This document shows positions 2,532-35,891 of a stretch of 39,031 bases of DNA, piece after piece. The notes under the pieces were generated by a model. It saw only the letters and a program-made list of their open reading frames with translations. It was not told the DNA's origin and ran no database searches. Position numbers and translations under genes: made by a program. Within the stretch, counting starts at the first letter, position 1. Every line of letters begins with the position of its first letter. This stretch comes from an uncultured Dehalococcoidia bacterium (GTDB lineage: Bacteria > Chloroflexota > Dehalococcoidia > UBA2247 > RBG-13-53-26): positions 1-39,031 of the forward strand of contig CAZUZX010000001.1 of assembly GCA_964624525.1 (NCBI GenBank). Reading direction: 5' to 3'.

Positions 2532-2619
2532 GGAGAGGTGACCGAGAGGCTGATGGTGCCGCTCTCGAAAAGCGGTCTCCGATTATATCGGAGCGTGGGT
2601 TCGAATCCCACCCTCTCCG
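2532..2619 (+). tRNA. tRNA-Ser (anticodon CGA), no encoded CCA
   Basis: Cloverleaf read by hand. Acceptor GGAGAGG/CCTCTCC, anticodon stem CCGCT/AGCGG with loop CTCGAAA, long variable arm CTCCGA-TTATA-TCGGAG, T arm GTGGG-TTCGAAT-CCCAC. Confidence 0.9.
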
Positions 2620-2620
2620 T

Positions 2621-2710
2621 GGAGAGGTGCTGGAGTGGACTATCAGGCGCGCCTGGAGAGCGCGTGGTCGATTTATCGGCCCGTGGGTTCGAATCCCACC
2701 CTCTCCGCCA
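2621..2710 (+). tRNA. tRNA-Ser (anticodon GGA), CCA encoded
   Basis: Acceptor GGAGAGG/CCTCTCC, anticodon stem CGCGC/GCGCG with loop CTGGAGA, long variable arm GGTCGA-TTTA-TCGGCC, T arm GTGGG-TTCGAAT-CCCAC, 3' GCCA. It starts 1 nt after the previous tRNA. Confidence 0.9.
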
Positions 2711-14135: not shown

Positions 14136-15002
14136 CTATGTTTTCTTTCTTGACTTGGGAATGTCGCGAGGTACGGGACCAATATATTCCCCGCAGGGAT
14201 CTGGGATGACTCGAAACGGTGTCCCTTCTCTTATCTCCTCAACTGCCATAGCAATCATCCCCGGTATCATTGTTACTGCGTAGACTAGCTCCATCGCCAG
14301 TGGGTCGAATCCCATATCAGCCATAAGAGCACCTGCCAACCCGTCCGTATTTTGCACCATGGCTCTTCCCAGATCTTTCTCCAGCTCCTTTTGAATAAGG
14401 TCATACATCCTCACGTGTGGTCCTTCCATTTTAAGCTTCCGAGCTAACTTGCGAAGCTTTACTGTCCTCGGGTCCTCTGTGTGTATGGGATGTCCAAATC
14501 CAGGTAATCTCTCTCCCCTCCCCCGAGCTTCCCTAACGACCCTTTTGGCTGCCTCCTCCATAGTTAAACCATAATCTGCACTATCAAAGGACTTCTTGAC
14601 CATCCCATAGGCCTTCATGAGCATCTCAGCACAATACCGAGGAGCCCCAGCCTGATACTGGCCTACAGTAAGGACACCAGCAGCAACAGCAGCTACTGCA
14701 TTTGGGTTACCTGAGGCGACGAATTTAGCTACAGGCTCAGCCTCGTCTATGAAATAGTGGCTGATGCCACTACTGAGTATGGCTTCAAACATCGCCGCTG
14801 TTCGCTCATCAGGCAACTCCCCCTGGATAGTGAGATACATTATCTCGGCAAAGGTGAAATTCCCTATAAGGTCAGAGAGCAAATAACCACGGACGCGGAT
14901 TTCATTCGGGGCAACCGAGCTTACCTTAGTCTTAAAATAGCCTTTCCACTCGTCATACTCCTTCAGTATCCGCTGTACTTCTTCCTTCGTCCTTTCTGGC
15001 AT
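14136..15002 (-). CDS. Short citrate-synthase-family protein (citryl-CoA lyase-like)
   Basis: 288-aa ORF with the citrate synthase active-site-type motif RLPGFGHPIH. Its length fits the short citryl-CoA-lyase branch rather than a full citrate synthase. Confidence 0.7.
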   Translation of the reverse strand: MPERTKEEVQRILKEYDEWKGYFKTKVSSVAPNEIRVRGYLLSDLIGNFTFAEIMYLTIQGELPDERTAAMFEAILSSGISHYFIDEAEPVAKFVASGNPNAVAAVAAGVLTVGQYQAGAPRYCAEMLMKAYGMVKKSFDSADYGLTMEEAAKRVVREARGRGERLPGFGHPIHTEDPRTVKLRKLARKLKMEGPHVRMYDLIQKELEKDLGRAMVQNTDGLAGALMADMGFDPLAMELVYAVTMIPGMIAMAVEEIREGTPFRVIPDPCGEYIGPVPRDIPKSRKKT

Positions 15003-15068
15003 AACATTGACCTCCTTACTTCATAATTAGACAAATTGCCTAATTTAACCCACTCAAAGATTGTTAGT

Positions 15069-15521
15069 TTACGCTACTATCTTCTTCGCTATTAGTAAAG
15101 TATGCTCTCCTCTCTGGACTTGCTCACCTCTCTGATTCACAATAGACATGTCAAAGCTAACAATCCCTCTATCGGCTTTCTTCGTCTCCTTCTTGGCAAT
15201 AACTTTAGTCTTTGATCTTATTGTGTCTCCTAACATGATGGGAGCTTTAAATTCCCAAGAGGACAAACCTAAATAAGCCAAAGCCGTAGTAGTCATCAGC
15301 CCCATTCTCTGAAACAATCCAAATCCTATTGACAGCCCTAATAATCCATGGGCAACCCTTGCTTTGAACATGGTGGTCTTAGCAAATTCTGCATCAGTAT
15401 GAAGTGGGTTATAATCCCCGGTGAGCCCGGCAAAAAGCATTACATCTGCTTCAGTGACTGTTCTAGAAGGGGAAACGAATTCATCGCCTATTTTGTAGTC
15501 TTCAAAATAAAGCGATTCCAT
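15069..15521 (-). CDS. MaoC-like (R)-specific enoyl-CoA hydratase / hot-dog dehydratase
   Basis: The ORF track gives 15069-15560 (TTG start). I prefer the ATG at 15521 because MESLYFEDYKIGDEF is a typical MaoC N-terminus. GDYNPLHTD...A.......VAHG is the MaoC hydratase motif. Confidence 0.85.
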   Translation of the reverse strand: MESLYFEDYKIGDEFVSPSRTVTEADVMLFAGLTGDYNPLHTDAEFAKTTMFKARVAHGLLGLSIGFGLFQRMGLMTTTALAYLGLSSWEFKAPIMLGDTIRSKTKVIAKKETKKADRGIVSFDMSIVNQRGEQVQRGEHTLLIAKKIVA

Positions 15522-15604
15522 TTGCGGTATAATTATAACCAGAGTAATAAAATTGGTCAATTTTCAAAGGCTCTCTCCTGGCGAAAATAGTAGGGGCTAA
15601 GACT

Positions 15605-21238: not shown

Positions 21239-21952
21239 TTGGGGTTAAGTGTTGTGAATTTAGGAAGGCAACTATATGATTTGCAGCAGATCGACATAGA
21301 TTTAGAAACAAGAAATAGAACGCTAAGACATATAGAGCGCCAATTAAGTGATAATAAGGCATTGGTTGAAGCCCAAGCGGAGGTGGTGAAGAAGCAGGAA
21401 AACCTGGCTGAGCTAAAAAAGAAGCAGCAAACAGCAGAATGGGAGACTGAGGATCTCCAAGCTAAGGTGGCTCCTTTACAGGAGAAGCTTTATATCGGTT
21501 CGGTAAAGAATCCTAAAGAGTTATTAAGTATACAACAGCAAGTTGAACTGATTAAGACTCAGATAAGAAGCAAGGAAGACGAGATACTAGAGATAATGAC
21601 TCAGGTGGAAGCATTACAAGAAGAGATAGCGCTGAAAACCATTGAGGTAGAAAAACTAGAGGAAGAGTGGCAGAAGAAGCAAGAGCAATTAGTAGCCGAG
21701 AGAGCAGAATTAGAAGCAGCAATAAGTAGAGCAGAACAAAAACGAGATGAACTTGCCACCACCATTGAGTCTACCTATCTGGAACTCTACGAAGTGCTCC
21801 GGGCAAAGAAACAGGGACAGGCAGTGGCCAGAATAGAGCAAGGGAGATGTCAAGGGTGCCGCATTACCCTCCCTATGAGTGAGCTACAGCGAGCTAGAAT
21901 GGGAGAATTAGTGCAGTGCAGTAGTTGCCATCGGGTTTTATATCTAGGTTAG
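21239..21952 (+). CDS. COG1579-type coiled-coil protein with C-terminal C4 zinc ribbon
   Basis: 237-aa ORF. A long heptad-rich region is followed by CQGCRITLP...CSSCHRVLY. The start is uncertain: TTG at 21239 or GTG at 21254. Confidence 0.75.
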   Translation: MGLSVVNLGRQLYDLQQIDIDLETRNRTLRHIERQLSDNKALVEAQAEVVKKQENLAELKKKQQTAEWETEDLQAKVAPLQEKLYIGSVKNPKELLSIQQQVELIKTQIRSKEDEILEIMTQVEALQEEIALKTIEVEKLEEEWQKKQEQLVAERAELEAAISRAEQKRDELATTIESTYLELYEVLRAKKQGQAVARIEQGRCQGCRITLPMSELQRARMGELVQCSSCHRVLYLG

Positions 21953-21954
21953 AC

Positions 21955-22392
21955 ATGAGCGATGCAAAGAAGTATCTCACCATCCATGTGGATGGGGCTT
22001 CGCGAGGCAATCCTGGTCCTGCTGGAATAGGTGTCTTTATAGAAGATGAGGCAGGCATGATTAAAGCCAAGCTCTCTCATTACATTGGAGAGGCTACTAA
22101 TAATCAAGCAGAATATAAAGCCCTAATTATGGGATTGAGGGAGGCAGTAAAGTTAGAAGCGGAACATATAAATATCAGGACAGATTCAAAGCTATTGGCA
22201 GAGCAGATTCGCGGCAACTACAAGGTGCGGAGTGCTAATTTGATGCCTCTATTTCGGCAAGTGAAGCAGCTTTTAGCCGGCTTCAATTCCTATAATATAG
22301 TCTGTGTACCGCGCCAGCAGAATGTAGTTGCGGATACCTTAGCCAACCGAGCTCTCACCAAGCAACTTAAAAATGTGGTAAACTATAACTAG
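21955..22392 (+). CDS. rnhA: Ribonuclease HI (RNase H type 1 fold, archaeal/actinobacterial-like short form)
   Basis: The ATG at 21955 gives MSDAKKYLTIHVDGASRGNPGPAGIG. DEDD residues lie in VDGAS, NNQAEY, RTDS and VADTLAN. The track start at 21925 overlaps the previous gene and looks less likely. Confidence 0.88.
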   Translation: MSDAKKYLTIHVDGASRGNPGPAGIGVFIEDEAGMIKAKLSHYIGEATNNQAEYKALIMGLREAVKLEAEHINIRTDSKLLAEQIRGNYKVRSANLMPLFRQVKQLLAGFNSYNIVCVPRQQNVVADTLANRALTKQLKNVVNYN

Positions 22393-30044: not shown

Positions 30045-31472
30045 ATGGCATTTAAAGACAATCGGGAATTTATAGTCGCTTTAGAGAAGACGGGAGACAT
30101 AGTTCGGGTGAGGAGAGAGGTGGATTGGGACTTAGAGGTAGGAGCAATTATTCGCCGCCTCAATGAGACAGAGGGTCCAGCTGCTTTTTTCCAGAAGATC
30201 AAGAACTATCCCGGACATACCATCTTTGGGACACCACTGGCTACCTTCAGACGGATGGCTGTTGCCCTAGGGCTCCCTGCCGATACTCCCAGGGCTGTGA
30301 TCCAGCAACACTACGAGAGTCTCATAGAACAGCCGATAAAACCTATTATTGTCAAAGATGCCCCTTGCAAAGAGAACATCATCAAAGGCAAGAACATAGA
30401 CCTTTATGAGTTCCCTGCTCCTATGGTCCATGAGGGAGACGGGGGGCGCTATATTGGCACTTGGCATGTGGTGGTGGGCAAGGACCCTGATAGCGAGTGG
30501 GTCAATTGGGGGATGTATCGCCTACAGATTCTGGGGCGAAGAGCTATGGGGGGTGTAATCGGTCCTTGGGCAAATCAGTTCCAGCTCTTTTATGGGAAAT
30601 ATGTACCCCGAGGTCAGAATATGCCCTTTGCCATAGCCATCGGGGCGGATCCCGTTAGCTCTTTTCTTGCCGCTTCTTATCTACCCCCGGGAGTAAGTGA
30701 GGCGGATTACGCCGGGGGCTTACGTCAGGAGCCAGTGGAGTTGATTAAATGCGAAACTAACGACCTGTATGTGCCCGCCTATGCTGAGATAATACTCGAA
30801 GGGGAAATCCTGAAGGATGTCACGGTAAACGAGGGACCCTTTGGAGAATATGTCGGCTACCGGGCTGGTCCCCGCACTGCTCGACCGGTTTATCAAGTAA
30901 ATTGCATCACCCACCGCAACAATCCTATTCTTACTGTATCGAATATGGGACTTCCTATTGATGACTGTGCTCTGGGGATGTCTATAAGCTTAGCCTATCA
31001 AATAAAAAAGCGCTTACGTGATTTTAGGATACCCTTCATTGATGTTAATGTGGTGCCAGAGGGAATTACGTTTCTGGCGGTAGTAAGCACCATACCCTTC
31101 TATAGTGGTATAGCCAATCAGATCGCCCATATAGCTAGCCAAACTATAGAACCACATATGGTGATAGTAGTGAATAACGATGTAGACGTCTTCGATATCC
31201 GTCAAGTATTACATGCCCTGGCTACCAAGTGTCATCCGGTGAGAGGAATAAGGGCGTTCGAAAGCGAGATGGGGTTACCTTTCTGCCCTTACTTAAAACC
31301 AGAAGAGAGGCGTATCATGAAAGGGGCTCGTGTAGTATTTGATTGCACCTGGCCCCTTGATTGGCCAAAGGAAACAGCTATCCCACCTCGCTCTTCCTTC
31401 AATGAGATGTATCCTCAAGAAATTAAGGATAAGGTTCTCGCTAATTGGAAGAAATATGGATTTAAATCCTAA
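30045..31472 (+). CDS. UbiD-family prenylated-FMN-dependent (de)carboxylase
   Basis: 475-aa ORF. FKDNREFIVALEKTGDIVRV, VNWGMYRLQ and NEGPFGEYVGYR are UbiD family signatures. SD aaggaggt is upstream. Confidence 0.9.
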   Translation: MAFKDNREFIVALEKTGDIVRVRREVDWDLEVGAIIRRLNETEGPAAFFQKIKNYPGHTIFGTPLATFRRMAVALGLPADTPRAVIQQHYESLIEQPIKPIIVKDAPCKENIIKGKNIDLYEFPAPMVHEGDGGRYIGTWHVVVGKDPDSEWVNWGMYRLQILGRRAMGGVIGPWANQFQLFYGKYVPRGQNMPFAIAIGADPVSSFLAASYLPPGVSEADYAGGLRQEPVELIKCETNDLYVPAYAEIILEGEILKDVTVNEGPFGEYVGYRAGPRTARPVYQVNCITHRNNPILTVSNMGLPIDDCALGMSISLAYQIKKRLRDFRIPFIDVNVVPEGITFLAVVSTIPFYSGIANQIAHIASQTIEPHMVIVVNNDVDVFDIRQVLHALATKCHPVRGIRAFESEMGLPFCPYLKPEERRIMKGARVVFDCTWPLDWPKETAIPPRSSFNEMYPQEIKDKVLANWKKYGFKS

Positions 31473-31499
31473 GCTAGGTCTTAAATCAGGAGGAATAGC

Positions 31500-31781
31500 A
31501 TGGCAAAGAAAAAAGAATACGATACTTTTGTAGCTAGCCTAGAGGAACTCACCCAAGGGCAGGAAACAGACATCAGCATCAGAGATTTAACTCCCGGTAG
31601 GCGGAAGTATGAATGGAAATATGTGAAAGCGATAGTATCTAGTTCGCCAGACAAATTGAAGGGTGGAGATGTTCTCTGGCTCAGGTTTAATGACACTGGG
31701 TTTCGACACCCTCAACCTTGGGCAATAAAGGTTAAGGAGATACTGGGCGAGTATGTTTCCCAAGAAAGAGTAGCTTATTAA
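31500..31781 (+). CDS. Hypothetical 93-aa protein downstream of UbiD
   Basis: SD caggagga precedes the ATG, which is 27 nt after the UbiD stop on the same strand. I recognise no family. Confidence 0.55.
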   Translation: MAKKKEYDTFVASLEELTQGQETDISIRDLTPGRRKYEWKYVKAIVSSSPDKLKGGDVLWLRFNDTGFRHPQPWAIKVKEILGEYVSQERVAY

Positions 31782-32372: not shown

Positions 32373-33647
32373 ATGAAAGTGCAAAGATGCAAAGGTAGTC
32401 GAGATCTGCTTCCTGAGGATATAGCAAGGTTTCGATATGTCGAGCAAGTTTTTAGGTCTTGTTGCCAGAGGTGGGGTTATAAGGAGATAAGAACACCCAC
32501 CTTAGAGTATCTCCATTTGTTTACTTCCGCGGGAACTCTTACCCCTAGTATGCTTAATAAGGTGTATTCTTTCCTTGATTGGGATGGCTGGAGCGGAGAG
32601 AGAGTAGTATTGAGACCCGAGGGCACTATCCCAGCAGCTCGACTTTACATTGAAAATTTCAAACCGTCCGGTCTAGCTAAACTATTCTATGTAGAAAATA
32701 TCTTTAGTTTCGAAGAGACCGGAAAGGAATCGAGGGAACGTTGGCAGTGTGGAGCTGAGTTAATAGGAAGTAATAAACCGTCTGCAGATGTGGAGTTGGT
32801 CTTGCTTGCTTTGGAAACTTTGGAAAGAATGGGTATCAAGGAAGTAAAGTTATGCCTCTCCCACGCTGGGCTGATAAAAGCTCTGCTCCGAGAATCAGGA
32901 TTGACACCATCAAAAGAAATCCAAATATTTGACCGAATTCTGGATGGAGACACAGAAATAGCAAGGGAAATTATAAAGGATAATCCCCAGCTTCGGGACT
33001 CTTTACCTTTACTTTTTGAACTCAGGGGGAAATCGCCTGGTTTCCTTGAGAATCTAAAGGTTTCCCTGACAAAAGCCTCACCTAATCTTAAGCTAAGCAT
33101 GGAAAACTTTATAACTATTGCTCAACTGCTGACTGATATGGGCTGTAAATATCAGATTGATATTGCTTCAGGCAAGGGCTTCGAGTATTATACGGGGATT
33201 ATTTTCCAAGTTTATCTTGGAAGCCAGAAAGTAGGAGGAGGGGGAAGATATGACGATCTAATTCCTCTCCTAGGAGGGAGTGATACTCCTGCCTCTGGTT
33301 TCGCTCTTTACATTGACCAGCTTATGAGCCTCCTCCCTTCCGGGGATTCGGGAGAGGATGCTTCAAAAATGATTCTAGTTCGAAACGAGATCGATGGAGT
33401 CAAGGGATGGAAGCTATCCTTTGAAATTGTTAGCCTACTACGGGAAGCTGGATATATAGTGGAGCTTGACCAAGGCTATAAAGAGCTAACCGAGCATCAA
33501 TGGATTCTCAAAATCCAAGAAGAAGGAGAAAGGCTCTTCTTCCTTTTGACTCATCAAGCTAGTGGTAAAAGCCTAGAGGCAGATTCACCAACCGGGATTT
33601 TGAGCATATTGCAGGGAACAAATGCAAATAAAGCTGGCTCTTCCTAA
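32373..33647 (+). CDS. hisZ: ATP phosphoribosyltransferase regulatory subunit HisZ (full-length HisRS paralogue)
   Basis: 424-aa ORF. KGSRDLLPED, LRPEGT, KGFEYYTG and GGGGRYDDL are HisRS-like. The motif 2 and motif 3 arginines appear replaced (NIFSFEE, ALYIDQL). It overlaps hisG by 26 nt. Confidence 0.8.
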   Translation: MKVQRCKGSRDLLPEDIARFRYVEQVFRSCCQRWGYKEIRTPTLEYLHLFTSAGTLTPSMLNKVYSFLDWDGWSGERVVLRPEGTIPAARLYIENFKPSGLAKLFYVENIFSFEETGKESRERWQCGAELIGSNKPSADVELVLLALETLERMGIKEVKLCLSHAGLIKALLRESGLTPSKEIQIFDRILDGDTEIAREIIKDNPQLRDSLPLLFELRGKSPGFLENLKVSLTKASPNLKLSMENFITIAQLLTDMGCKYQIDIASGKGFEYYTGIIFQVYLGSQKVGGGGRYDDLIPLLGGSDTPASGFALYIDQLMSLLPSGDSGEDASKMILVRNEIDGVKGWKLSFEIVSLLREAGYIVELDQGYKELTEHQWILKIQEEGERLFFLLTHQASGKSLEADSPTGILSILQGTNANKAGSS

Positions 33648-35052
33648 GGGACGTTTGCTTCCTTACACAAATATTTTATTGCAAAAGGCAAGGCTGGAAC
33701 TCAGCGACTACGAGGAGCAATCTCGCTCCTATCGACCTCGATGCAATGGTCTTCCTAACCTCTTTCTAAAGATGTTTCATGAAAAGGATATACCTATACA
33801 AGTAGCAGTAGGAAACTACGACTTAGGGATCTGTGGGCTGGATTGGGTTGAAGAGCTTTTAGTTAAATATCCTAGCAGTGCCTTGGTCAAGGTGCATGAC
33901 CTGGGGTATGGCAAAAGCAATCTATATATAGCTATTGGTAGATCGGCTGGTATATCATCGTTAGAAGAGCTAAAGGCTAAGGCGGAGATAATACGTATAG
34001 CTAGCGAATACCCCAATCTAGCTGAATCCTTCGCCTTAAACATGAGGTTGAGGCGATTTAAGATTTTCCCACTTTGGGGGGCGGCTGAGGTTTACCCCCC
34101 AGAAAGTGCTGATCTCGCCTTGGTCTCTCATGCTTCTCCCGATAGTCTTTTCAAGCATGGGCTAGTTCCTCTGACTTCGATTCTTCAGTCGAGTGCTTTT
34201 CTAGTTGCCCACCGGCATAGCTGGGAATATAAGGATATGAGCTTCTTGCTCCATTGCTTTCATGCTGTAGAGGGTATAGAGAAGGAGACAGTAAATAAAG
34301 AGTTGGAGACTAGAGGCAGTATGGAGAAGCAGGGATTCAGCCCCCAGTTTCCGGCTGCTGGTTTGTGGCTTGCTCTTCCTAATGGACACCAACAGCAACC
34401 TACCCTTGAATTCTTAAACCAGGTTGGTCTCAAAGTCTGGGATTACCCTTCGGAGTCTCGCCGCCCCAATATCAGCCTTGATGGTGTTAGTGTGAAAGTG
34501 ATTCGACCTCAAGATATGCCTCTTCAGATTGCCAATAAGAATTTTGATCTAGCCATCACCGGTCAAGACTGGCTTTATGATCACCTTTGCCGTTTCCCCT
34601 CCAGCCCAGTGAAGGAACTTCTCAAATTGGGATTCGGTAAGGTGCGGATTGTAGCTGTAGTGAGCCAGGAATTGCCAGTAAGTAGTATTCAGAACTTAAG
34701 GGAACTATTGAGGGAAGGCAAACTCTCTACTCTCAGGATAGCCTCAGAATACATTAATATTGCCGACAGGTATGCTCGAGATAACCACCTTAGCCCTTAT
34801 AGATTGATCCCCACATGGGGGGCAAGTGAGGTCTTCCTACCAGAAGATGCTGACTTGCTTATCGAGAATGTTCAGACAGGGCAAACTGTGGCCCAGCATA
34901 ATCTCAAGATTATCGACACCATTTTCGAATCATCAGCTTGTCTTATTGGCAATGTACATACCTCTCCGCTTAAGCAACAGAAGATAGATTATGTTGTCCA
35001 AGTTCTCCGCCAGGCAGTAGTGACTAATGATAAAACTTTAAAGAGGGGGTAG
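33622..35052 (+). CDS. hisG: ATP phosphoribosyltransferase, tandem-duplicated short-form HisG fusion
   Basis: 476-aa ORF made of two HisG-like halves: aa 1 to about 215 (IKLALPKGRL...) and about 245 to 476 (LWLALPNGHQ...). The halves align with each other along their length. Only the second half carries the DLLIENVQTGQTV PRPP-loop motif. Confidence 0.85.
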   Translation: MQIKLALPKGRLLPYTNILLQKARLELSDYEEQSRSYRPRCNGLPNLFLKMFHEKDIPIQVAVGNYDLGICGLDWVEELLVKYPSSALVKVHDLGYGKSNLYIAIGRSAGISSLEELKAKAEIIRIASEYPNLAESFALNMRLRRFKIFPLWGAAEVYPPESADLALVSHASPDSLFKHGLVPLTSILQSSAFLVAHRHSWEYKDMSFLLHCFHAVEGIEKETVNKELETRGSMEKQGFSPQFPAAGLWLALPNGHQQQPTLEFLNQVGLKVWDYPSESRRPNISLDGVSVKVIRPQDMPLQIANKNFDLAITGQDWLYDHLCRFPSSPVKELLKLGFGKVRIVAVVSQELPVSSIQNLRELLREGKLSTLRIASEYINIADRYARDNHLSPYRLIPTWGASEVFLPEDADLLIENVQTGQTVAQHNLKIIDTIFESSACLIGNVHTSPLKQQKIDYVVQVLRQAVVTNDKTLKRG

Positions 35053-35060
35053 ATGTTATT

Positions 35061-35891
35061 ATGGAGTTTCAGGCTATCATCTTTAAAAAAGAAGACCGAA
35101 TCGCTACTATCACCCTAAATCGCCCTGAAGTCTTAAATGCCATAAACGAGCAAATGGGTGATGAACTATCCCGAGCAATCAAGGATGTATCACAAGATGA
35201 TGATATCAGGGTACTAATCATTAAAGGGGCTGGTCGCGCCTTCTGTGCTGGGGCAGATTTCAGGTTTGGGATGGTAAGAGCTGAGGAGGTTACCCCTGAA
35301 AAGGCAGAGGCATTACCGGGATTTCACGAGGACTTGAGGAAAGGGAAACTTCTTCACAAAGGGCAACTAGATATAATCCTTGCCCTTCAGCGCCTGGATA
35401 AACCAACGATTGCTATGGTGAATGGACCAGCTGCTGGTTTTGGGTTTGACCTGACTTTAGCCTGTGACATGCGGATAGGCTCCCCTGAGGCAAGGTTTAT
35501 GGTAGGCTTTACCAGGATAGGAATTCCTTCCGATACTGGAGGAACCTGGCTAATGCCACGGATTATGGGCTTGGGCAAAGCCCTGGAATATATCTTTACC
35601 GGTGATTTTTGTAATGCTGATGAAGCTTATAGAATAGGGCTGCTGAACAGACTCGTGCCTGCTGAGCAACTCGAAGAAGAAGCAATGGCATTGGCTCGCA
35701 AGATAGCAATGGGTTCCCCTATAGCTTATAGATTATCAAAACTGCAGGTATATCGAGGGTTGGAAACAGACCTAGAAACGGCACTAGCATTAGCTACTGC
35801 TTGTGTCTCAATAGCTATCTCTTCGGAGGATCATAAGGAGGGGATTAGAGCCTTCGCTGAAAAGAGACCACCCCAGTTCAAAGGTAGATGA
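35061..35891 (+). CDS. Enoyl-CoA hydratase/isomerase (crotonase) family protein
   Basis: 276-aa ORF. ITLNRPEVLNA, FCAGADF, AMVNGPAAGFGFDLTLACDMRIG and C-terminal AFAEKRPPQFKGR show it is a paralogue of 16598-17380. Confidence 0.9.
   Translation: MEFQAIIFKKEDRIATITLNRPEVLNAINEQMGDELSRAIKDVSQDDDIRVLIIKGAGRAFCAGADFRFGMVRAEEVTPEKAEALPGFHEDLRKGKLLHKGQLDIILALQRLDKPTIAMVNGPAAGFGFDLTLACDMRIGSPEARFMVGFTRIGIPSDTGGTWLMPRIMGLGKALEYIFTGDFCNADEAYRIGLLNRLVPAEQLEEEAMALARKIAMGSPIAYRLSKLQVYRGLETDLETALALATACVSIAISSEDHKEGIRAFAEKRPPQFKGR

Follow-up and report, generated by a model that had tools for sequence, protein, structure and literature searches.

The window analysed here, a stretch of 39,031 nucleotides from an uncultured Dehalococcoidia bacterium (contig CAZUZX010000001.1, positions 1 to 39,031 of the forward strand), carries a double hisG gene (33622..35052, +), in which a single uninterrupted reading frame of 476 aa plus a stop encodes two HisG units in one chain. 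The first or N-type unit (33622..34236, +; aa 1–205) is predicted to be a catalytically dead partner subunit, and the second or C-type unit (34360..34959, +; aa 247–446) is predicted to be the catalytic subunit. The explanation that we regard as probable is a HisZ-regulated and obligately asymmetric HisG pair with one composite active site, which is fused in one chain here. Together with the hisZ-like gene located directly upstream, the double hisG most likely encodes the ATP phosphoribosyltransferase (ATPPRT) of the cell, the enzyme that carries out the initial step in histidine biosynthesis.

Two HisG units in one chain

The whole 476-aa protein matches the Pfam family PF01634 with an E-value of 3e-63 and the NCBIfam hisG equivalog model TIGR00070 with 253 bits, and two separate matching stretches were found for each model. 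A preliminary description of this DNA, made from the letters alone, had claimed that the frame holds two short-form HisG-like units, and this is borne out when the halves are scanned separately. The N half alone (aa 1–219) scores 97.9 bits against Pfam HisG and 125.1 bits against TIGR00070, and the C half alone (aa 247–476) scores 119 and 132.8 bits, respectively, all above the curated cut-offs of 25.5 bits for PF01634 and 75.75 bits for TIGR00070. The 183-position hisG model is spanned end to end by the N half and by the C half. When the halves are aligned to each other by BLASTP, they share 34% identity over 201 aa with 8 gaps (E-value 6e-39), a likeness that is, judged from the sequences, far above chance; the four pairs of blocks quoted in the preliminary description all lie inside this alignment, and its motifs, PKGR and SPDS in the N half and PNGH and TGQT in the C half, had been read exactly. 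PF01634 is the sole Pfam family in the double HisG, and the Pfam scan gave no match to the HisG_C regulatory domain. The sequence GGGAAC, resembling a ribosome-binding site, is located 5–10 nt 5' of the double hisG ATG, and a promoter and terminator scan near the hisZ–hisG operon gave counts no higher than the shuffled expectation.

The two units are joined by a linker (34237..34359, +; aa 206–246) without any conserved column. Among 120 relatives (the best matches of the protein search described below), it has 18.5% mean pairwise identity, no column that is at least 95% conserved, and a length of 33–51 aa with a median of 42, so the earlier figure of about 30 aa was roughly right. The N half (aa 1–205) has 62.5% mean pairwise identity in the same relatives with 65 of 205 columns at least 95% conserved, and the C half (aa 247–446) has 70.6% with 85 of 200 such columns. 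It is followed by a C-terminal helical tail (34960..35049, +; aa 447–476), which has 30% pairwise identity and no column conserved to this level.

An AlphaFold2 model built on a 32-sequence alignment has a predicted local distance difference test score (pLDDT) of 81.9 and a predicted template modelling score (pTM) of 0.70, and the order of strands and helices is identical in both halves. The tail forms a helix over aa 449–474 in this model, and aa 222–245 of the linker have pLDDT values below 50 and are disordered. In a Foldseek search against the PDB, the top 50 matches are all HisG structures, with template modelling (TM) scores of about 0.84 and up to 0.86 normalised to the target; one half, whether N or C, was aligned per match, which gives about 0.38–0.42 normalised to the query. 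As modelled, each half has the two-domain alpha/beta HisG fold, and the pTM of 0.70 is only an indirect hint on the relative placement of the halves. Conservation and model combined indicate that both halves are folded HisG units under purifying selection with a free linker between them.

Complementary active-site residues

In the short-form HisG (HisGS) dimer, the subunits are arranged head-to-tail and the active sites line the crevice that separates them (PMC10795190). In Psychrobacter arcticus, Arg56 of a HisGS subunit extends across the dimer interface and binds the pyrophosphate of the 5-phosphoribosyl 1-pyrophosphate (PRPP) in its partner, and the R56A variant is 42-fold impaired (PMC9734150). 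P. arcticus Arg73, which is Arg70 in Acinetobacter baumannii, binds the ATP gamma-phosphate (PMC10795190), and Arg32, the R of PKGR, has a role in leaving-group stabilisation. The residues of the double HisG were mapped by HMMER alignments to A. baumannii HisGS with the numbering of the two studies (PMC10795190; PMC9734150). Counts for the close family refer to the 120 sequences, and the wider counts refer to 22 fused proteins plus the split proteins of each type, making 37 N-type (22 fused and 15 split) and 29 C-type sequences, together with 21 canonical HisG.

In the C half, the predicted PRPP-binding loop (34864..34887, +; ENVQTGQT, aa 415–422) has E415, N416, T419, G420, and T422 invariant in the 120 sequences. 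The PROSITE-type signature of PRPP loops is D-[LIV]-x2-[ST]-G-x-T-[LM]; the C half reads E415-N-V-Q-T-G-Q-T-V, and the C-type loop is E-x3-T-G-x-T with Glu and Gly in 29/29 sequences, compared with Asp in 20/21 canonical HisG. Arg295 (34504..34506, +) is equivalent to P. arcticus Arg73 and A. baumannii Arg70, and this position is Arg in 29/29 C-type proteins, the canonical HisG having Arg in 14 and Lys in 7 of 21. PNGH (34378..34389, +; aa 253–256) replaces PKGR, and the family consensus is PDGH; G255 and H256 are invariant in the close family, residue 254 is D or N in all, and Q257 and Q258 are 97–99% conserved. The Arg32 position is therefore occupied by His in 29/29 C-type sequences, within an invariant D-G-H-Q-Q, and by Arg in 12/21 canonical HisG, which also have S, H, or K there. 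Because Ser or His stands at this position in several sampled canonical HisG, and the nearest canonical HisG differ in the loop by Asp versus Glu alone ('EDADMIIDNISTGRTL' versus 'EDADLLIENVQTGQTV' in the C half), the changes from Asp to Glu and from Arg to His appear conservative and are not read as inactivating. Their invariance suggests that the site has probably been remodelled.

The N half has a degenerate PRPP loop (34123..34146, +; VSHASPDS, aa 168–175), which contains no Asp and no TGxT, so that V-S-H-A-S-P-D-S fails the loop signature. Both in the 120 relatives and in the wider set, aa 169–180 are freely variable in sequence and in length with no conserved residue, and the position of the loop Asp is a hydrophobic I, V, or L in N-type proteins. 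The Arg73 position is His53, which is variable among N-type proteins. The PKGR motif (33643..33654, +; aa 8–11) contains R11, the equivalent of P. arcticus Arg32; A6–G10 are invariant in the 120 sequences, and R11 is Arg in 82 of them (68%) and E, D, or G in split N-type proteins. Arg35 (33724..33726, +) is the equivalent of P. arcticus Arg56 and A. baumannii Arg53, the N-half 'EQSR' pairing with 'EKSR' in the alignment to A. baumannii HisGS. It is R in 118/120 close relatives (98%), 20/22 diverse fused proteins, and 15/15 split N-type proteins, that is, in 35/37 N-type sequences overall. The Arg56 position is Arg in 17/21 canonical HisG; in the C type, the equivalent is Arg280 in 91% of close relatives, and A, D, or T precedes a conserved R-P in deep and split members.

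The two patterns are complementary, the C type keeping the substrate-binding residues that act in cis and the N type keeping the sole residue known to act in trans, and the reciprocal site is degenerate on both sides. A full set of Arg32, Arg56, and Arg73 equivalents is obtained only with both halves combined, and even then, Arg32 of the C half is His256. Such a pattern is expected if N-type and C-type units pair head-to-tail and share one composite site, and it argues against C:C and N:N homodimers. The complementary loss of motifs that had been noticed in the single sequence is conserved in every relative examined. The accompanying idea of a composite or single functional site gains support from the near-invariant R35 in the half without the loop and from the drifting Arg56 equivalent in the half with it.

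Distribution of fused and split forms

A search of 5.8 billion proteins gave 3,831 matches, of which the best 120 are 57–99% identical to the window protein. They are 424–494 aa long, all but five of them 465–494 aa, with the double architecture throughout, and where they carry a name, it is 'ATP phosphoribosyltransferase' of Dehalococcoidia or Chloroflexota metagenome-assembled genomes (MAGs). In a survey of one genome per GTDB species with two family-specific peptide patterns, at least 600 stretches were matched, and relatives are encoded by 582 of them; since a single gene carries both patterns, the genomes may number closer to half of 582, still in the hundreds. The double HisG is thus not peculiar to the reading frame in which it was first noticed. 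From this survey, 80 loci of at most 13.5 kb each were taken for locus-level comparisons, and the titles of 80/80 name Dehalococcoidia, Dehalococcoidales, or Chloroflexota, two of them being complete chromosomes. A HMMER search of 1.84 billion cluster representatives detected full-length doubles down to 34% identity (P0135–P0137, P0143), which, where named, are likewise labelled Dehalococcoidia or Chloroflexota. The sequence matches indicate that the fused architecture is class-wide in Dehalococcoidia. No PDB chain has a double-HisG architecture, the longest HisG chain matched being 352 aa.

The search of representatives also gave proteins of approximately 213–253 aa that match the N half only or the C half only. 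In such split loci, the gene order is hisZ, N-type hisG, and C-type hisG, as separate overlapping genes, and the stop/start overlap takes the position of the linker in the fused form. The split form was found in at least four other lineages. For instance, L081–L083, from three samples, encode proteins of 229 and 244 aa with ATGA-type and 8-nt overlaps; L084 encodes 232 and 237 aa; L085–L087, from a cluster named Desulfobacterales with cytochrome c3 and TusA genes among the neighbours, encode 226 and 253 aa; and L088/L089 encode 241 and 248 aa, followed by a Zn_dep_PLPC-like gene and hisD. L090, in which hisD and hisC follow, has a 26-nt out-of-frame overlap; like some stand-alone N-type or C-type proteins of the library, for example P0154 (on a 930-nt contig) and P0192, it was left out of the split-gene evidence as a possible fragment or frameshift. 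In the databases, 'ATP phosphoribosyltransferase' is the plain name given to the fused proteins and to those split C-type proteins that are named.

A neighbour-joining tree was built from 87 sequences, namely the halves of fused proteins, the split proteins, and canonical HisG taken from the library, with four sequences from the PDB. The N-type sequences form one group (bootstrap 96/100) and the C-type sequences another (82/100), and within each group, split and fused members are intermixed, indicating that the duplication into N and C types is older than the divergence of these lineages and that the covalent link is optional. The initial term 'internal tandem duplication' was right as to the duplication, but the fusion appears to be one state of an older system of two paralogues that is also found as separate genes. 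Given the split genes, the history is better worded as duplication, divergence, and, in this lineage, fusion.

The two-gene versions in other lineages, and the overlap in L090 that could be a frameshift, might suggest that two neighbouring hisG genes were joined here by a sequencing or assembly error. This has a negligible probability in our estimation: the lengths of the closest homologues are nearly uniform, as given above; a coding linker of variable length is present in every double; and assemblies from JGI, ENA, NCBI, and Logan all contain doubles without interruption, among them the complete chromosomes CP070810.1 and CP070819.1. With several hundred uninterrupted homologues, an assembly or frameshift merger was ruled out.

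The hisZ gene and its surroundings

The hisZ-like gene (32373..33647, +; 424 aa) encodes a regulatory paralogue of histidyl-tRNA synthetase (HisRS), and its 3' end runs 26 nt into the double hisG. The protein matches Pfam tRNA-synt_His over aa 8–317, and the Pfam scan found no anticodon-binding domain in it. Its NCBIfam scores are 219 bits for hisZ (TIGR00443, cut-off 271.65) and 216.7 bits for hisS, both below the cut-off. Arg113, Arg259, and Arg311 of Escherichia coli HisRS, which we take to be catalytic residues, align to Ser, Lys, and Gln, and the histidine-site motifs LRPEGT and GGGRYD, read directly from the sequence, are intact. A true HisRS was considered for this gene and ruled out by the missing anticodon domain and the replacement of the three catalytic Arg; on these grounds, and given the equal hisZ and hisS scores, the gene is assigned to HisZ by sequence. 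Wherever the 5' flank of a locus among the 80 is long enough, tblastn shows a hisZ homologue upstream of the double hisG, which it mostly overlaps or abuts. The last approximately 100 residues of the window protein (aa 325–424) match no Pfam family, and HisZ lengths range from 314 to 426 aa in related operons, so an extra C-terminal domain would be optional.

No other histidine biosynthesis gene was found in the 39-kb window, the remainder of which is ordinary chromosomal housekeeping. A gene of the enoyl-CoA hydratase/isomerase family (35061..35891, +) begins 9 nt past the double-hisG stop, and a homologue is at the same place in approximately 14 of the 80 related loci, mostly those of the closest relatives; it has no obvious tie to histidine synthesis. 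Further upstream (30045..31781, +), the gene for a UbiD-family decarboxylase (475 aa) precedes one for a 93-aa protein with a match to the phenylphosphate carboxylase gamma subunit, and the two resemble a module of the phenylphosphate-carboxylase kind or of a related aromatic (de)carboxylase. At 14136..15560 (−), a 287-aa protein whose sole match is to the C-terminal part of citrate synthase is encoded beside a MaoC-like dehydratase; it resembles a short citrate-synthase homologue of the citryl-CoA-lyase type rather than a full citrate synthase. The window also has two tRNA-Ser genes with CGA and GGA anticodons (2532..2710, +), head to tail and 1 nt apart. A 155-aa protein with RVT_3 (reverse-transcriptase-like) and RNase H matches (21925..22392, +), probably of RNase H type, is encoded by a gene that overlaps the end of a CT398-like zinc-ribbon gene.

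Some neighbours of the split operons are also worth recording. In three independent split-operon lineages (L085 1..2766, L087 1..2766, L088 1107..3240, L090 1..219), a gene for an NfeD-family membrane protease lies divergently upstream of hisZ, and a Band_7/FloA flotillin-like gene stands beside it in L085, L087, and L088; the NfeD neighbourhood is kept across split-operon lineages that are otherwise distant. A gene of the Zn_dep_PLPC family (zinc-dependent phospholipase C fold, approximately 251 aa) lies between C-type hisG and hisD in L088 (5747..6502) and L090 (3977..4735). It is apparently within the his operon and could stand in, as a non-orthologous enzyme, for a pathway step that is missing, for example histidinol-phosphate phosphatase.

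A proposed composite active site and the alternatives

In the mechanism proposed, an old duplication of a short-form-like hisG would have given two types of paralogue, each always accompanied by one copy of the other. The C-type unit would be the catalytic subunit, which has kept the PRPP loop and the Arg for the ATP gamma-phosphate and would convert ATP and PRPP to N1-(5-phosphoribosyl)-ATP (PRATP) and pyrophosphate. The N-type unit would be a pseudo-enzyme with a HisG fold, retained by purifying selection as the obligatory dimer partner. We infer that it replaces the second subunit of the head-to-tail HisGS dimer, pairing with the C-type unit in canonical geometry, and inserts Arg35 into the C-type site, where the pyrophosphate leaving group would be stabilised. 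Its contribution would be the dimer interface, Arg35 acting in trans, and one half of the surface on which HisZ docks, so that each HisG pair would have one composite active site rather than two. In Dehalococcoidia, the two genes would have been fused by a floppy linker of approximately 40 aa, and the complex with the translationally coupled HisZ is expected to be HisZ4:(HisG–HisG)2, having two active sites and not four. The preliminary description had likewise suggested a covalent pseudo-dimer that would alter the stoichiometry with HisZ. Activation and histidine feedback would be brought by HisZ.

Several observations weigh against this explanation. The C half differs from the canonical site at two conserved positions, both family-invariant, namely the loop Asp (to Glu) and Arg32 (to His, together with the adjacent Lys to Asp), and its activity could be weak, altered, or strongly dependent on HisZ. 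The N half keeps the invariant motifs ALPKG, EKDIPIQVAVGNYDLGICG, and WG..E.YPPE, which are not obviously needed by a mere scaffold, and it may contribute more than a single Arg. Near Arg56, the alignment of the C type has a 2-residue deletion and is uncertain by 1–3 residues. These genomes may also carry a canonical hisG; within the stretches covered, the 80 loci and the 39-kb window, there is no second HisG-like match.

The second of these points leads to a different account of the asymmetry, in which the N-type half is mainly regulatory or ligand-sensing, binding AMP, ADP, ATP, or histidine or docking HisZ, and the asymmetry serves allostery. F52, E54, D56, Q60–V61, and G64–G69 are invariant, the domain-I-like motifs are among the most conserved parts of the protein, and the catalytic PRPP loop is gone; moreover, long-form HisG uses extra modules for feedback control (PMC8305728). 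This account leaves unexplained why the Arg56 equivalent is near-invariant (35/37) while the Arg73 and Arg32 equivalents drift, and a HisZ with intact histidine-site motifs is already there for feedback, which makes it unlikely as the main cause. It is not exclusive of the composite site, and the conserved domain-I motifs of the N half (ALPKG, EKDIPIQVAVGNYDLGICG) leave room for an extra ligand-binding or regulatory role.

The C-type substitutions, being fixed in 29/29 sequences where canonical HisG has Asp in 20/21, could alternatively mark a neofunctionalised pair, that is, a phosphoribosyltransferase with a different acceptor or role, with a canonical HisG elsewhere in the genome making PRATP, and the window is without other his biosynthesis genes. 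This is improbable given the universal tight linkage to hisZ, the presence of hisD and hisC in split operons, and the scores of each half well over the NCBIfam hisG equivalog cut-off; none of the 80 loci yielded a second HisG-like match, and the two Dehalococcoidetes genomes then available were counted as His+ by Fani et al. Even less credence is given to two active sites per chain, with non-canonical PRPP binding in the N half, which retains Glu156, Asp164, and, in this window, Arg11 of PKGR. The loop region at aa 169–180 is of variable length without a conserved residue, with I, V, or L at the Asp position; Arg11 is only 68% conserved in close relatives and is E, D, or G in the split forms; and the Arg73 equivalent is lost. 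The composite site in an asymmetric pair accounts for the complementary residues of the two types and is preferred over these alternatives.

Implications

ATPPRT is a model for allosteric activation. It has been called a promising antibiotic target in A. baumannii (PMC10795190) and is also described as a target in histidine overproduction. If the composite site is real, the double HisG would represent, in nature, a 'half-of-sites by design' form of an enzyme with intensively studied allostery. The asymmetric pair would then be a ready-made test of how far catalysis depends on the trans Arg56 contact and of whether either site of the HisGS dimer depends on the other. For annotation, this bears on how pathways are reconstructed and auxotrophies predicted in Dehalococcoidia and related MAGs: judged from the residues, an N-type copy alone is probably not an enzyme, and a C-type copy may be inactive without its N-type partner.

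The histidine pathway is a textbook example of gene elongation and fusion. To this, the double hisG adds a lineage-specific duplication, sub-functionalisation, and fusion with extant unfused intermediates.

Comparison with known systems

ATPPRT has been described in two forms, the long form (HisGL, 292±11 aa) and the short form (HisGS, 214±9 aa), whose distribution, according to the same source, had not been surveyed in depth, and organisms with the long form are expected to be without hisZ (PMC8305728). No double or heteromeric HisG was found in the searchable literature on tandem duplication, gene elongation, Chloroflexi HisZ, Dehalococcoides, and heterodimeric paralogues, subscription-only papers being outside this scope; this and the reviews, which give only long and short forms, agree with the earlier statement that no fused double HisG had been described. 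No hisG duplication is mentioned in two reviews on the fusion and elongation of his genes (Fani et al., 2007; Del Duca et al., 2020), even though two Dehalococcoidetes genomes were among those covered by one of these reviews (Fani et al.). The sequences themselves are not new, thousands being in databases under a generic name; what appears new is the recognition of the architecture and its asymmetry. On balance, we lean slightly towards a third natural ATPPRT architecture beside HisGL and HisGS/HisZ, an obligate hetero-HisG in which a pseudo-enzyme paralogue completes a single site in trans under regulation by HisZ, and which is encoded by two genes in several lineages (one of them labelled Desulfobacterales) and by a fused gene throughout Dehalococcoidia.

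The HisGS/HisZ systems, which assemble as HisZ4:HisGS4 hetero-octamers (P. arcticus 5M8H/6FU2, A. baumannii 8OY0, Lactococcus lactis 1Z7M, Thermotoga maritima 1USY), are alike in having HisGS-sized units without a C-terminal regulatory domain, and the predicted fold of the window protein matches HisGS chains at a TM of about 0.8. The window also has the adjacent, translationally coupled hisZ, and the trans Arg56 of the partner that completes the known site has a conserved equivalent in the N half. The known enzyme, however, is a homodimer of identical 214±9-aa chains with two equivalent sites, whereas here a 476-aa chain is made of diverged paralogues (34% identical), only one of which has a PRPP loop, and in the site that survives, the loop Asp is replaced by Glu and Arg32 by His. 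By its sequence, the system would work like a short-form ATPPRT, yet it lacks the homodimeric catalytic subunit of approximately 214 aa that characterises this form.

The HisGL enzymes (E. coli 1H3D, Mycobacterium tuberculosis 1NH7, Campylobacter jejuni 4YB5, Methanothermobacter thermautotrophicus 2VD3), which are hexamers with a HisG_C domain, belong to the same catalytic core family, and the canonical sequences closest to the C half include proteins of approximately 290 aa with 'PPEDAD.I.DN..TG.TL' (P0208, P0218, P0226). In contrast to HisGL, the double HisG has no HisG_C, its extra mass is a second copy of the catalytic core and not a histidine-binding domain, and hisZ is present. The half-barrel gene elongation of hisA/hisF is ancient and universal and gave one symmetric barrel, whereas the double hisG is lineage-restricted and joins two whole enzymes, one copy of which has degenerated. 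HisZ, a catalytically dead HisRS paralogue, is a precedent in the same enzyme for a pseudo-enzyme paralogue as an essential partner; the N-type HisG differs from it in that its paralogue is the catalytic subunit and not a tRNA synthetase, and it is proposed still to give a catalytic residue.

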